Positions 20,506-56,576 of a stretch of 64,000 nt of DNA are shown in pieces. Under the pieces are notes generated by a model, which was given only the letters and a program-made list of their open reading frames with translations, had not been told where the DNA came from and searched no databases. Positions within the stretch are counted from its first letter, which is position 1. The number at the start of each line of letters is the position of its first letter. A program made the position numbers and the translations under genes. Source of the stretch: Octopus vulgaris (taxonomy: Eukaryota); contig OX597817.1 in NCBI GenBank assembly GCA_951406725.2, positions 25,048,001 to 25,112,000 on the forward strand, in the 5' to 3' direction.

Positions 20506-20703
20506 TTAAATGGACTTCGCTGGAATTAAATAATTAGTAGATATATTTGAGGTCTCTGTCCATGGAAGCAATGCAGATCAGGTAAATTGTGTGTGTTTAA
20601 AGCTTGCATCTGGACATTTAAGGAATAATAACGAGAGCTGTCTTTTTCATAACTATGTTTTGGGTGATTTTCATCTTCTTTCTTTCTGTCAATGTTATTT
20701 TCA

Positions 20704-21048
20704 GCGTGGAAGGTGTTTGTAAGCCATTTAGGAAACACACAAAAGCCGTTCGATTCAGTTCAACATTTAAGTTTAATTTGTCAAAATATTTTCGTTGCTA
20801 AAATCCGCGACCTGTTCACTGACAAAAATCCGTGCTGCACGGAGATGCAGCATTGATTTTTGTCAGTGAACAAGTCGCAGATTTTAGCGACGAAAATATT
20901 TTGACAAATTAAACTTAAATGTTGAAGTGAATCGAATGGCTTTTGTGTGTTTCCTAAATGGCTTACAAACACCTTCCACGCTGCAATTGTTTTCGTTCCA
21001 GCACACGATCTCAGATCAAATCACTTGCTATGCGAGTACATCTCCGCA
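20704..21048 (+). mobile_element. Fold-back insertion (PLE pLTR-like) with 13-bp TSD
   Basis: ~138-bp arms 20702-20839 and 20846-20983; TSD AATGTTATTTTCA at 20691-20703 and 21049-21061. Confidence 0.85.
20859..20908 (+). ncRNA. Minimal type I hammerhead-like motif with G3-C8 core (mirror copy at 20777-20826, minus strand)
   Basis: TTTGTCA-GTGAACA-A-GTCGC(agatttta)GCGAC-GAAA-ATAT-TT-TGACAAA. Confidence 0.6.
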
Positions 21049-21762
21049 AATGTTATTTTCATCATACAAAATTAATTTCAGTGTGAGACAAAGAATGGTT
21101 ACATGTCTGCATTGTTACATTGTTAAATGGTTACATATTAGAATTAATATCTACACACAACATTATTTACTACAAATACTTATTCACATTAACCAATGGA
21201 AATAAAGCAAGTTACTATATCAGATCACCAGAACATCAAACATCATGGTTACACCATCAATCCACTAGATGTATATTTGAGTATGTTTCTTTTACTGTCT
21301 CTGTCATGCAAGAGGTGGTCCTTGTTTCCAATCTTCGATGTAATCATGTCTGAGCATGGTGATATATTACCTTATTTGGAAATGGGTGAGGGATGGCAAT
21401 GAAAATGGTATCCACCTATAGAAAATTTGTCTGATCAATGCAATCATAGAAGTGCAGATGTTTGATTCACTCATGCATGCATACATACATACATACATAC
21501 ATACTTTAGATTGATGATAATATTTTTAACAGAGACGTTATAACCATATATGATTGTCCAAGTTCTCCAATTCTGTATTTGTACATATATCTACTTGACT
21601 GCTAACATTTATCAATGGTTTCTTCCATTGTTTTCATGTGCCATTTTCTATCTTTATTGGTATTCTTGATGACATGGGTATACTAATAATAATAATAATA
21701 ATAATAATAATAAATAAGGATAAAATTTTCTGATACAGTACCTGTCAGTGGCTCTCACTTAT

Positions 21763-22057
21763 TCTACTTATTCTACCGGTCTCTTTGTTTTTGCCGAACC
21801 GCTAAGTGACGGGGACGTAAACACACCAGTATCGGTTGTCAAGCGACGCTAGGGGGACAAACACAGACACACACATATATATATATACACATATACGACA
21901 GGCTTCTTTCAGTTTCCGTCTACCAAATCCACTCACAAGGCATTGGTCGGCCCAGGGCTATAGCAGAAGACACTTGCCCAAGATGCCACGCAGTGGGACT
22001 GAACCCGGAACCATATGGTTGGTTAGCCAGCTACTTACCACACAGCCATTCCTGCGC
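21763..22057 (-). mobile_element. SINE family A (3' part missing)
   Basis: Matches family. Confidence 0.88.
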
Positions 22058-22085
22058 CGATATGTGAATAATACTGTTGATAATT

Positions 22086-24030
22086 ATGAAAATATGTAAT
22101 TATTTTGTATCCTTTCCTTGTAAAATATAATTAAGATTGTTATTTTCTCAAGGACATAAACTGTGAAGTTCACAATAAGAAATAGAAATTTCATTTTTAA
22201 AGCAGTAGCCAACATCTTATTGCAAAATTTTAGTGTCAAACAATATTAGCTGGTGTCTTGGATTGGTGCATAATTATTGTGGCTTTTTTTCAACAAAAGC
22301 AATAACAAAATTTAACTCCTTTAAATGACAGTCTGACCATCTGCCAAGCAAATGGGAAGCAGTAATTGAAGTAGGTGGTGAATATATTCCGGAATAATCA
22401 TTTAAAGATGTTTTTATTTCTTATTATGAACTTCACAGTTTAAGTCCTTGAGAAAATAATAATTTTAACAATATTTTTCAAGTAAAAGATAGAAAATAAT
22501 TTCATATTTTCATAATTATCAACAGTGCTATTCACATATTATAATAACAATTCTCATCAAGAATAACAAGTAGAAAAAGTAGGGGACATTGTAGATTTTA
22601 GTTGCATCCCTTTTTGGTGCTGGAATTTTGTCTGATGTGTTTGCCTTGTCAAAGGCAGTGTTGATGATGTTGTTCACATCATCATTATTATTATTGAGTG
22701 AGAAAGTAGTGCATGCCATCAAAGTGATACTGGGGTAAAATATATGAACCCAATAGTAATGCAGTGTTAAGAAATTATCTAAGAGTGTTGTCTCGCAAGC
22801 GAGATGTATATGAAAATATATTCTCTGGTGACAGCTCTTTCAATAAGTAATTTTCCACCAAGAATGATATCAATAATATTACAAAACAAATACAACAGGA
22901 CTGAGGATGTTGTTTATTCTTTTGTTTCTTATTTGTTTTAGCCATGAGACAGCAACCATGCTTGGGCACTGACTTGAAGGATTTTAATTGAACAAATTTA
23001 CCCCAGGACTTAAAAAAAGAAACCGATAGAATTTTTTTGTTGAATCACTAATCTAAAAGGATGTAAACACACCAACCCTGGTTATCAAACGGTGAGGTTG
23101 GGGTCAAACACTGACACAAAGACATACATAAATATATATACAAACAATGGGCTTCTTACATATATATAAATGATGGGCTTCTTTCAGTTTCCATCTACCA
23201 AATCCACTCACAAGACTCTGGCTGGCCTGAGGCTATAGTTGAAGACACTTGTCCAAGATTCCATGCAGTGAGACTGGAACCAGAACCATGTGATTGGGCA
23301 GCAAACTTCTTACCACACAGCCTCACTTGCACCTGAATTTATATTAAAAATATAATTTATTTGAAATATCTGCCATTTTTCAACAAGATGGCAGTTACAG
23401 GAACAACTCATCTTTATTTTCAGGCTTAATGTCTGATTGATTGAGTTAACCCTGCCTTATTTAGATGAGTTGTTAAGTTAATCTACAGTCTTTGAAATTC
23501 TGAAAAAATTTCAAAGATGTAGATATATCGGAACTGATGATTATTACAGTAATTGTAGTTCCTCATTTAGAATCAACTGAGAGATCATGTACAATGGATG
23601 TGGCCAATAGACAAGTTTTCATGATGCTATTGAAAGTGGCAGTTGAAAAATGTTAAATCCAGTACAAACAGCAAATTTACTTTTTTTCACATTTATGTAT
23701 TTCTGTAAAATTGTCCAAACGTTGATAAGCTATCTTCTAAGCATTGTTCAGAATGAGTTGGTGATAATGGCATAAATTTACATTTGGAAATAAACAAATT
23801 GATTGCATCATCAAGGCAATGACAAAAGACCGAGACCTCTGAGATATGCTGTGACTGCGAAGACCTGACAAATGAAGTGAGTTCATGGCTCGCAGGACGG
23901 CCTGCTGTGCTAACCTTGGATCGTAGGGTGACCCGCTGTGCTTGAGGGGACCTATTGAGTCAAGTACATCAACATCAAAATAAAAATCAAATGGAAATTG
24001 TAGTTGTGATACCCGTGCCAGTGGCACATA
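22086..24030 (+). repeat. Local duplication, copy 2, with internal inversion and insertion (22416-22748)
   Basis: Aligns to 17461-17804 and 17874-19110. Confidence 0.9.
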
Positions 24031-24310
24031 AAAAGCACCATCCAAACATGGTCGATGCCTGTGTCGGTGACACGTAAAAAGCATCAACCGATGGTAGCTG
24101 TTTGCCATCCCCCTCTGGCCCCTGTGCTGGTGGCATGTAAAAAGCACCCACTACACTCACAGAGTGGTTGGCGTTAGAAAGGGCATCCAGCTGTAGAAAC
24201 ACTGCCAGATCAGACTGGAGCCTGGTGCAGCCTCCTGGCTTACCATACCCTGGTCAAACAGTCCAACCCATCCTAGCATGGAAAACGGACGTTAAACGAT
24301 GATGATGATG
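23815..24310 (+). mobile_element. RTE LINE 3' end
   Basis: GACCGAGACCTCTGAGATATGCTGTG through GGAAAACGGACGTTAAAC(GAT)n. Confidence 0.85.
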
Positions 24311-54688: not shown

Positions 54689-54974
54689 TATGTGTAATTT
54701 TTCTATCTATGTTTTAGCTCAGCACCATATCTAACTACCTGTCAGTCTATTTGTAAAGCTTAATTTAACGTATTCCGTTACCCCGAAATAGTCTCTCAAT
54801 AGTCATTATGATTGTTATGCCATGACACATGTATACAAGCATATGTTTGTTCACTGGATGTATACATAAAAATATTTATATCTAAATATACATACATTCA
54901 AATTGATACAGACATATATGGATATAAACATTTATGTGTGTGTGCGTGTGTGTATACATACATATAGATATATG

Positions 54975-55120
54975 TTTATTTTCTTGTGTTCCTTTCTGTT
55001 GAAGAGTGTAATAGGCTTGAAACATTAAAGACTTTCTCACTTTCCTGAGTGTAAAACTAATACACTTGTTTGTTGTTTATACACTAGTCTTCGTCTTTTG
55101 ATTTCTGTAAATTCCAACTA
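54975..55120 (+). mobile_element. PLE pLTR-like unit with degenerate hammerhead (54992-55030)
   Basis: CTTT-CTGTTGA-A-GAGT(gtaatag)GCTT-GAAA-CA-TT-AAAG. Confidence 0.6.
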
Positions 55121-55421
55121 GCTACAACCACACACACATACACACACACACGCACACACACACACACACACACCCGTGTCATCATTGCACACATACACAC
55201 ACACACACACGCAGACCTCCGCGCACGCACATATCCACACTTACACACACATTCCCCCTCCTACCATTCTGCTGTCTTTGACAATACTACTCTTCTGTCT
55301 TTGAAAACATCTTTCTTCACCCTTTTCCTTCTGGTCTTTCAAAATGTGACCTCGTGTGTACCGTTAACAATTTTTTTTTTTTTCCTCTGTCTTCCCTTCT
55401 CTGGATCTTTTCTTCTCCTAT

Positions 55422-55456
55422 GTTTCCGACGAAGAGCTCCGCTCGAAACGTTAAAC
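55422..55456 (+). ncRNA. Minimal hammerhead motif (U4C) in a pLTR-like unit at ~55385-55553
   Basis: GTTT-CCGACGA-A-GAGC(tcc)GCTC-GAAA-CG-TT-AAAC. Confidence 0.65.
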
Positions 55457-55679
55457 CCTCCTTCTTTCCTTCTTTCCTGAGCGTCCAATAATACTATATT
55501 TGTTCCACGTCTTCGCGTTGTTGTGTTTTTTGTGCTTTCTTGTTTTGTGCTTTATATATATATATATATATATATATTAATAGTAATAATATGACAACAA
55601 AAGAATGAATAAGACCCCGATATTATGTAAATAGAGGAATTTATCTGTAATATAATATGTGACAATTATTCAGTTGCTA

Positions 55680-55742
55680 TAATAAAACTCTGAGTTTCGG
55701 CTGTCGGAGTGAAAATCTGCTCTGGCATCTTGTCAGTTATTA
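55680..55742 (-). ncRNA. Hammerhead motif with long stem II (G8A) in a pLTR-like unit at ~55577-55880
   Basis: Minus strand TAATAA-CTGACAA-[31-nt imperfect hairpin]-GAAA-CTCAGAG-TT-TTATTA. Confidence 0.6.
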
Positions 55743-56576
55743 AGGCAAACAAAAATGCTATGCAAATGACCGTTAAACAAAGGGAAATTACTATGTAGAT
55801 GACCGTTATTAAGACAAACAAAAGAACTATTAGAATGACCATTAAATAAAGAGAAAAAACCCGAAGGGGGAAGTAAAATATGCTCATAGAATTTGCGTAT
55901 GTGTGCATGTACATACACATGCACACCCACGTACATCTGCATATATGCATATGCTCAACCACACACACACACTCCTATATGTGCATATATATCTGCAACC
56001 ATACACATTTACACATATACATATCCACTCACACGTACACATACCATATGCATACAGTTATATTCATATACATGTCTATATGTATACATACATACATACA
56101 CACACACTCTCTTTTCTATATATGTACTTCTACTTTTATCCTTCAAACCTACTTATGTACCTACACATTTACATACATACATACATACATACATACATAC
56201 CAACTATTGGCAATTATTCCTGTTTTATATCATTAAGTTACATTAATGCTTTTACTCCCACACACTCCTTATAGTTTTATGAATGTTTATTTCATACTAA
56301 TGTGTATACATATGTAAACAGCAGTAATGACACCAAAAATATCATAACAGCAATTTCTCATAAATAATATATTACTATCATTTCACTATTATCAGCACTT
56401 TCAAATTATAATAACCATTACACAAAACAGATAAACAACAATATTAACTTGTTATTAAAAGTAATCACCTCATTTTAAGTTCAGTTTTGAGTAATCATGA
56501 TTACAGGATGTCACATATGACAATTTCACCTCTGTTATGGAAAGGAAAAACCTAAATCATGAATTGAGATGTAATA

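Follow-up and report, generated by a model that had tools for sequence, protein, structure and literature searches.

Five fold-back insertions lie in a 64,000-nucleotide stretch of the 2.8-Gb genome of Octopus vulgaris (GenBank assembly GCA_951406725.2, contig OX597817.1, positions 25,048,001 to 25,112,000; G000:C4:25048001-25112000 in our coordinates), hereafter the window, to which window positions refer. We consider it very likely that these and four further units, labelled A to I, are short insertions of eight families, among them five cut-down ends of protein-coding Penelope-like elements (PLEs) and two protein-free retrozymes, written by a PLE reverse transcriptase (RT)-endonuclease that copied RNA from both strands of a staggered cut and left two separately truncated copies head to head.

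Foremost among the evidence for this mode of formation is the geometry of the two arms in copies fetched from the whole genome. For each search 40 candidates were scored and the best-scoring 25-30 fetched, giving samples biased to young copies. Each family has two fixed 3' end points, 30-75 nt apart, that bound a "tail" of 55-75 nt in A, B, C, D and H and of 30 nt in E; the 5' junctions are variable. Direct arms mostly end at the outer fixed point and inverted arms at the inner one, as is the case for 14/15 inverted arms in B, 12/13 in E and 11/18 in C; in D both end points are used by either arm. Among the 18 copies with an inverted arm in a sample of A drawn with the 3' 94 nt only (n = 30), this arm extends beyond the direct arm on the 5' side by more than 10 nt in eight and falls short of it in six. 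Neither arm was therefore copied from the other, the two having been separately truncated, and copying from both cut strands is therefore favoured. The enzyme would nick AT-rich DNA approximately 12-13 bp apart, each strand would prime synthesis from a different one of the two internal RNA sites, and both cDNAs would stop early before being joined. A PLE protein assayed in vitro cleaves both strands and extends them from two internal sites, one at each limit of the tail (PMC11167929), and the fold-back, an architecture already described for PLEs (PMC8557442), is a standard PLE insertion footprint.

Self-comparison of the window placed the five fold-backs at 20704-21048 (A), 33195-33473 (B), 36569-36762 (C), 39969-40380 (D) and 49453-49642 (E), covering approximately 965 of the 64,000 bp. 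They are near-perfect palindromes of 130-280 bp, with arms 92-94% identical in A, B, C and E and 99% identical over 94 nt in D. Exact target-site duplications (TSDs) flank A (13 bp), C (13 bp) and D (11 bp); none was detected for B and E, both of which are embedded in (TA)n. These observations bear out a first-pass annotation of this DNA, which had described five inverted copies each placed before a longer arm, three of them with exact 11-13 bp TSDs and two in (TA)n. Its description of the five as largely unrelated in sequence fails for C and D, whose monomers are homologous and align at 58-60% (E 2.7e-18). The components of the five fold-backs, some of them identified as pseudo-long terminal repeats (pLTRs) of PLEs, are the following:

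20691-20703, no strand: left TSD of unit A (20.7 kb), 13 bp; right copy 21049-21061
20704-20839, minus: unit A, inverted arm with antisense hammerhead copy, core 20819-20813
20843-21048, plus: unit A, direct arm and tail, putative 3' end of a coding PLE
20866-20872, plus: unit A, core (G3-C8) of the direct-arm hammerhead, predicted cut after 20901
33195-33295, minus: unit B (33.2 kb), inverted arm; antisense motif core 33264-33258, stem II with a 2-nt deletion
33300-33473, plus: unit B, direct arm and tail, probable Hydra-type PLE pLTR, in (TA)n
33331-33337, plus: unit B, core (CCGAUGA) of the direct-arm motif, predicted cut after 33360
36556-36568, no strand: left TSD of unit C (36.6 kb), 13 bp; right copy 36763-36775
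36569-36762, plus: unit C, from a putative 363-nt retrozyme, truncated before the U3-A8 hammerhead of its family; inverted arm 36569-36643, direct arm 36644-36762
39958-39968, no strand: left TSD of unit D (40.0 kb), 11 bp; right copy 40381-40391
39969-40073, minus: unit D, inverted arm with an internal deletion
40074-40380, plus: unit D, direct arm, most of a putative 362-nt retrozyme monomer
40116-40122, plus: unit D, core of a type I hammerhead, predicted cut after 40150
49453-49642, plus: unit E (49.5 kb), probable Neptune-type PLE pLTR end in (TA)n, truncated just after the hammerhead-like motif of its family; inverted arm 49453-49529, direct arm and 30-nt tail 49535-49642

Coding elements and retrozymes behind the insertions

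Judging from the sequence of ORF-bearing copies (ORF, open reading frame) elsewhere in the genome, A, B, E, F and H appear to be 5'-truncated ends (pLTRs) of protein-coding PLEs, in line with the Penelope-like origin that had been proposed for them; no PLE ORF was found in the window itself. Families B and E have an ORF between pLTRs. Two B loci (L171, L172) consist of a pLTR, a broken ORF and a second pLTR, the ORF of L171 carrying the RWK, DKT and CxCx5C motifs given as marks of the Hydra clade in PMC8557442, and one E locus (L182) reads pLTR-ORF-pLTR with a CxxxxCxxC linker and a Pfam GIY-YIG match (E 3.3e-5), motifs suggestive of a Neptune-type element. For A, F and H the ORF lies only upstream of the unit: in L173 a frame of 431 aa, with motifs like those of RT and GIY-YIG, stops 0.8 kb short of A, an RT-thumb fragment that matches the E ORF at 33% (E 2e-10) runs into F in L184, and Hydra-type fragments precede H in 2/25 loci. 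A long form of the E pLTR (L126, L130, L131) is longer by approximately 190 nt, inserted from the GTA cleavage triplet onwards; this insert begins with GT, contains a branch-point-like CTAAC and a pyrimidine tract and ends with AG, and the short form is not its exact spliced product.

With A, B, E, F and H probably being truncated ends of coding PLEs, the "about five non-coding families" forming a distinct system, as first suggested, would be reduced to C and D, and perhaps I/G. C repeats in tandem with a period of 363 nt (L189, L190), each monomer carrying one hammerhead, and D is a terminally redundant unit with a period of 362-364. Their GC contents are 0.41 and 0.44 and their fold z scores -5.9 and -6.6, respectively (0/100 shuffles as stable), all of which is suggestive of two related families of 362-363-nt retrozymes fitting those of PMC7229834. 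No copy linked to a PLE ORF was seen for C (n = 24), D (n = 28) or I (n = 30). C, D and I/G would insert like PLEs without being PLEs proper, C and D borrowing the PLE enzyme in trans.

A number of points weigh against these assignments. ORF-linked copies number only one to three per family sample (A 1/30, B 2/30, E 3/25, F 1/30), and no uninterrupted full-length PLE ORF was found in the fetched loci, the ORFs seen there being frameshifted or partial. Pfam gave no match for the A and B frames (nor for that of F), and the 23 homologues of the A frame bear no informative name, so that the assignment of the A and B frames rests on motifs read by eye. Clade names derive from motifs compared with PMC8557442. 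On the retrozyme side, two tandem hammerheads were found in 0/28 D loci, no PLE partner for C, D or I emerged by 3'-end similarity among the fetched loci, and the 3' ends of the families show no detectable similarity to each other except C with D. Examined for intact RT-GIY-YIG frames next to the units, the loci showed linkage for A, B, E, F and H, with frames that are broken or partial.

Inserted copies do not seem to owe their ends to the ribozyme cut. A start at the cut was rejected for A (3/22 at-risk copies within 6 nt, 2.2 expected), and the 5' starts of C and D are scattered. In A, 12/15 copies reaching far enough stop within -5 to +14 of one point located 20-30 nt before the core (p 3e-8, computed against the downstream truncation rate in the sample drawn with the 3' 94 nt only), and 12/25 E copies start within 16 nt. 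Both pile-ups fall at TCAGAT, which may mark the 5' limit of an RNA, a transcription start or a splice acceptor. A cap-derived G at the 5' end of A was considered and dropped, a genomic TGAG variant accounting for the G. These pile-ups leave room for solo A, E and I pLTR copies that are transcribed from an internal start and spread as mini-elements resembling short interspersed nuclear elements (SINEs), a reading compatible with copying by a PLE enzyme and to which we give a little under an even chance. The I copies, 0/30 of which extend upstream beyond approximately 180 nt or are linked to an ORF, point in the same direction; however, the query behind the I sample was itself nearly full-length, the end point in A can also be taken for a 3' splice site (branch-point-like CTAAC, pyrimidines, CAG), and a long upstream (CATA)n tract could stall the enzyme.

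Hammerhead-shaped motifs of the eight families

Nine hammerhead-shaped instances occur at seven loci of the window: 20866(+), 20819(-), 33331(+), 33264(-), 40116(+), 45826(-), 54996(+), 55426(+) and 55736(-). A strict descriptor, composed after the motifs had been seen, matched three of them (20866, 40116, 55426) and nothing in 20/20 shuffles. A loose descriptor, with five matches in the window against 0-3 in eight shuffles, is not selective, and its match at 25760(-) was rejected as probably due to chance. No hammerhead model in Rfam matched any unit (one search being limited to the best 150 of 199 matches). The motifs reported at seven loci by the first-pass annotation are present as nine instances, six of which fail the strict test as damaged copies or as family variants outside the descriptor. 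Damage specific to the copy, relative to its family, consists of C3U at 45.7 kb, G8A at 55.7 kb and broken stems at 55.0 kb; the unit F core is identical to the majority core of its family. The same annotation was right in assigning motifs to three of the five fold-backs in the window, although families C and E have motifs too, their window copies being without one because they are truncated. The four units outside the fold-backs are:

45695-45886, minus: family I unit (45.7 kb), approximately 200 nt; damaged motif, core 45826-45820; family core CUGUGGA (A6U)
54980-55115, plus: unit G (55.0 kb), 77-78% like family I; degenerate motif, core CUGUUGA 54996-55002
55120-55552, plus: family F unit (55.4 kb), putative PLE 3' end; core CCGACGA 55426-55432, predicted cut after 55452
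55574-55880, minus: family H unit (55.7 kb), probable Hydra-type PLE 3' end; core 55736-55730, G8A in the window copy

We note that G, F and H bring three PLE-type ends within 900 bp (54980-55880), F and H lying tail to tail around (TA)n; the cluster likely reflects repeated use of the same target.

Across the genome samples the majority core is GUGAACA in A (28/29), CCGAUGA in B (26/30), UUGAAAA in C (13/15), CCGA(U/C)GA in D (20/27), CCGACGA in F (25/29), CUGACGA in H (13/25) and CUGUGGA in I (22/30 of the motifs found). The 3-8 pair together with G5 and A9 is kept in 28/29 motifs of A, 30/30 of B, 15/15 of C, 25/27 of D, 26/29 of F, 16/25 of H and 23/30 of I, the pair occurring as G-C, C-G or U-A across families. 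I/G cores deviate at A6 (A6U), the B core has U4C plus a bulge, and B and H share their type of stem III, both also having one additional nucleotide ahead of GAAA. The E motif, overlooked by GAAA-anchored scans, then spotted by eye and counted, has a U3-A8 core, a 4-bp stem II, a palindromic stem III and GCAA replacing GAAA (A13C), with a weak stem I, reduced in most copies to 2 bp and a bulge; no covariation was found among its 40 matches in fetched loci, some of which were counted twice. Stem covariation is provided by the homologous C and D motifs, which differ by five two-sided changes including C3-G8 to U3-A8, and by the first pair of stem I in D, A-U in 15 and G-C in 11 of 28 motifs; telling against the latter, 97/500 shuffles reach as many two-sided changes, and this single pair may reflect one event. 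Families A, B and F are young and show too little stem variation for covariation. A census of 1.21 Mb of fetched, partly overlapping loci gave 223 hammerhead matches of approximately 30 types. With at least eight families represented in the window, cores conserved family-wide and the C/D changes, the varied ribozyme repertoire and the conservation of core and stems that had been anticipated are both supported.

The hammerheads are predicted to cut RNA, those of C and D most probably so, having longer stems, and the PLE-type minimal hammerheads would cut only as dimers or with the help of protein. The inverted pairs have their motifs on opposite strands, and one fold-back transcript therefore cannot supply a tandem dimer. 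U3-A8 and U4C are known natural hammerhead variants (PMC3088659), and in vitro hammerhead mutants leave insertion unaffected (PMC11167929). Alternatively, most of the PLE-type motifs (A6U in I/G, A13C in E, U4C plus bulge in B) may be relics without activity or folds that bind protein, preserved through amplification rather than selection for cutting, a possibility that we regard as serious but doubtful. In vitro, hammerheads changed at A6 have low activity and those with U4C a reduced one (PMC3088659), the minimal hammerheads of PLEs are poor cutters even in dimeric form (PMC4209133), the copies do not pile up at the predicted cut site, and the short, bulged stem I of E points the same way. 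Set against this are the retention of the 3-8 pair through C-G, U-A and G-C in different families, the stems that remain paired in unrelated sequences, and the partial rescue of a PLE hammerhead by the double change C3G/G8C in vitro (PMC11167929).

Target sites and other routes to a palindrome

A first look at the genome gave 1889 candidates for D, 1620 for A, 1738 for B, 846 for C, 1072 for E, 2295 for F, 3780 for I and 1649 for H; these figures (846-3780 per family) are first-look candidates and not copy numbers, and the units, as had been claimed, are not single-copy. Three duplicate loci (L017, L020 and L100, of L004, L012 and L099) and the inverted hits of L249, a microsatellite artefact, were dropped before counting. 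An inverted arm is present in 14/30 sampled copies of A, 15/30 of B, 18/24 of C, 22/28 of D, 13/25 of E and 5/25 of H, and in 0/30 of both F and I. TSDs are 10-17 bp long, mostly 12-13 bp. (TA)n is found at the 3' end of 14-26 of the 24-30 copies per family in A, B, C, D, E, H and I, and follows most F copies as well, the score of 1/30 for this family being an artefact of the chosen reference end.

Fold-backs could also result from snap-back, with self-priming taking place on an antisense template or the first cDNA, which is how the palindromic inverted junctions of rotifer Penelope elements have been interpreted (PMC3846280), and the octopus junctions often overlap by 1-5 nt. Yet the sequence held by eight of the 18 inverted arms of A 5' of the direct-arm start could not be yielded by copying of the direct arm, the fixed inner end of inverted arms matches the second initiation site seen in vitro (PMC11167929), and the TSDs flank the entire structure, all of which makes this route improbable. 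That the units, near-perfect palindromes as they are, should be miniature inverted-repeat transposable elements or foldback DNA transposons with terminal inverted repeats can be dismissed, given their unequal arms, one-sided tails, junctions that vary from copy to copy and TSDs of variable length, the lack of symmetric terminal repeats, the many copies without an inverted arm and the longer copies that continue into RT/GIY-YIG frames.

Other repeats were seen in the window. A sixth local fold-back (19708-19834, 86%) is built from another abundant window repeat and not from the PLE families studied here. A complex inverted and tandem array of a repeat of approximately 185-230 nt occupies 50951-51851, and this repeat forms a 185-nt tandem at 62759-63124. 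There are many copies of a SINE-like repeat that contains a (TA)/(CA) tract, several as nearby inverted pairs (11842-13558, 21789-22065, 29475-29884, 31385-31788, 39212-39623, 41287-41934, 54286-54695). A GC-richer coding remnant (45960-48000, read by eye) resembles a long interspersed nuclear element (LINE), and a 153-aa frame at 57642-58103 (minus strand) resembles the end of a LINE ORF2. An assembly gap of 100 N lies at 35846-35945.

A LINE lineage, RNA editing and relation to known systems

Outside the window, two C loci contain a 5349-bp two-ORF LINE inserted 17 nt before the hammerhead core with a 17-bp TSD; the window itself has no LINE of this type. Its ORF1 has a CCHC knuckle and its ORF2 carries APE, RT and zf-RVT domains; from this layout and its insertion habit we take it to be Tx1-like. 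Its homologues bear no clade name, the named ones being from an octopod and a cuttlefish.

L179:1686-7034, minus: LINE copy; further loci L180, L251-L267 and L353-L360

Twenty of 30 LINE 3' ends lie at the single C site, five of them in one cluster (16 followed by monomer, three by the TSD and another LINE, one after a short duplication); the other ten are more diverged, eight being followed by ATAC and one by a U1 small nuclear RNA (snRNA) gene from its first base. At the 5' side (n = 30), 16 ends follow the C TSD, one is truncated inside C, two follow the first 17 nt of U1, eight a D-like site and three a third repeat. The D-type LINE is 83-85% identical and also has a 17-bp TSD (five loci). 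One 5'-truncated copy with a TSD differs from its tree neighbour by 0.1% in the LINE and by 2.1% in the monomer, and identical monomers elsewhere carry LINEs 1.0% apart. Because of this truncated copy and these discordant distances, we conclude that the LINE inserts independently. LINE copies hitchhike on PLE-type insertion as well: in L261 and L195, LINE sequence lies within or next to inverted arms of PLE type, and five loci have the LINE haplotype and the monomer haplotype in common.

Several observations accompany these insertions. LINE-TSD-LINE sequences form a tandem cluster at G000:C2:73.04-73.07 Mb. The third LINE-targeted repeat family was seen in L361-L363 (G000:C17:38380270, C1:94139160, C7:111049039), the last of which has a stretch resembling a hammerhead following the insertion site. 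Two oppositely oriented U2 snRNA genes (L265:401-594, plus; 6985-7178, minus) flank an older full-length LINE that is preceded on its 5' side by the first 17 nt of U1, and several U1-type LINE copies lie among more than 20 clustered U1 genes at G000:C18:48.97-49.21 Mb.

AGTG occurs 54-57 nt before the site in 12/12 U1 genes, one U2 gene, C and D, and, by eye, in the third target. In a promoter-matrix test, weak and made with an unaligned matrix, C ranked 5 of 726 and D 22 of 724; an snRNA-type promoter in the retrozymes is plausible on this evidence. Comparison of U1-type with C-type LINEs gave no signal of endonuclease change (12/245 endonuclease against 10/260 RT differences, from one U1-type copy). 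Tx1 families that target other transposons are known (PMC4494074), and in the literature we found no retrozyme as a LINE target. As a two-ORF APE-RT LINE with one exact site in another repeat, a 17-bp TSD and tandem insertions around it, the octopus element resembles the target-specific Tx1-clade LINEs of that source, such as Tx1L in Tx1D, Tx1-Mar in Mariner-N4 and Keno in U2 snRNA. Its targets are different, namely the two retrozymes, C and D, and in U1 snRNA the first base; its clade is assigned by domain layout and insertion habit.

Read-through transcripts of fold-backs would be likely to form long double-stranded RNA edited by ADAR. In contigs from two presumed-RNA runs over the C array, T>C or A>G accounts for 38/54 and 29/48 changed places, against 4/22 and 5/21 in two large runs of unstated kind, in a comparison of low-depth runs from different individuals that are not recorded as RNA. 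Contigs dense in these changes map to L189:4151-4595 in runs X1 and X7, and one 330-nt contig spans an inversion joint with 36 changes. The pattern is a hint that ADAR hyper-edits RNA of the fold-backs. An unusual abundance of near-perfect double-stranded RNA and of hyper-editing has been reported for octopus, with no repeat source assigned, and heavy editing of Penelope for a lizard (PMC5625713).

PLE fold-backs, pLTR hammerheads and retrozymes have all been published already (PMC4209133, PMC8557442, PMC7229834, bioRxiv 10.64898/2026.07.22.740005, PMC6765202); a description of any of them in octopus was not found in the literature. With endonuclease-containing PLEs (PMC8557442, PMC3846280, PMC11167929) the octopus insertions share the head-to-head inverted copy, the tail on one arm, the variable TSD, the (TA)n, an RT with C-terminal GIY-YIG and the two fixed 3' ends. 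They differ in that most copies are only 100-400 bp long and that the tails of A, B, C, D and H exceed the published 30-40 nt, which that of E does not.

PLE pLTR hammerheads, of which PMC4209133 gives molluscan examples from Lottia and Crassostrea, likewise have a short palindromic stem III, an extra nucleotide after A9, U3-A8 covariation, many families per genome and opposite-strand pairs 100-700 bp apart; the octopus motifs depart from them in the family-fixed G3-C8 (A), A6U (I/G), A13C (E) and extra pre-GAAA nucleotide (B, H). The part of the PMC4209133 supplement that was searched contains no cephalopod example.

Like the metazoan non-LTR retrozymes (PMC7229834, bioRxiv 10.64898/2026.07.22.740005), C and D are non-coding tandem monomers in the range of 350-390 nt with GC below 50%, a type I hammerhead, a stable self-paired fold and a proposed dependence on PLEs. 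Unlike them, they show PLE-type fold-backs and paired end points directly, no D arrays were seen, and C and D are known from genomic sequence, their circles and cleavage being predicted. In the literature consulted G3-C8 occurs only as an engineered variant, and no natural G3-C8, A6U or A13C-core family was found; some may be listed in the most extensive survey of PLE variants (Luense et al. 2017). What looks undescribed, accordingly, is the fixed G3-C8, A6U and A13C cores together with a LINE at one retrozyme site and at U1 +1.

We tentatively suggest, as a speculative extension of these findings, a three-tier stack of parasites in which PLE enzymes spread the retrozymes C and D, equipped with their own snRNA-type promoter, and a LINE lineage targets the base at which transcription of these retrozymes and of U1 snRNA genes begins, switches targets with little sequence change and is itself carried by the PLE enzyme. 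Fold-backs would then supply much of the long double-stranded RNA behind the heavy A-to-I editing of this animal lineage, and several families would run working G3-C8, A6U or A13C hammerheads.

The value of these findings lies in the test material they provide, the core biology having been published and the genome group being one for which we found no description. Eight families in one genome offer natural C-G, U-A and G-C 3-8 cores, together with A6U and A13C, ready for assay. The arm geometry lends genomic support to two-strand, two-site priming, so far seen in vitro for one element, and C and D display PLE-type insertion footprints on retrozymes, for which such dependence had previously been mostly proposed. 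The LINE found at retrozymes and at U1 +1 would constitute a natural experiment in target switching.

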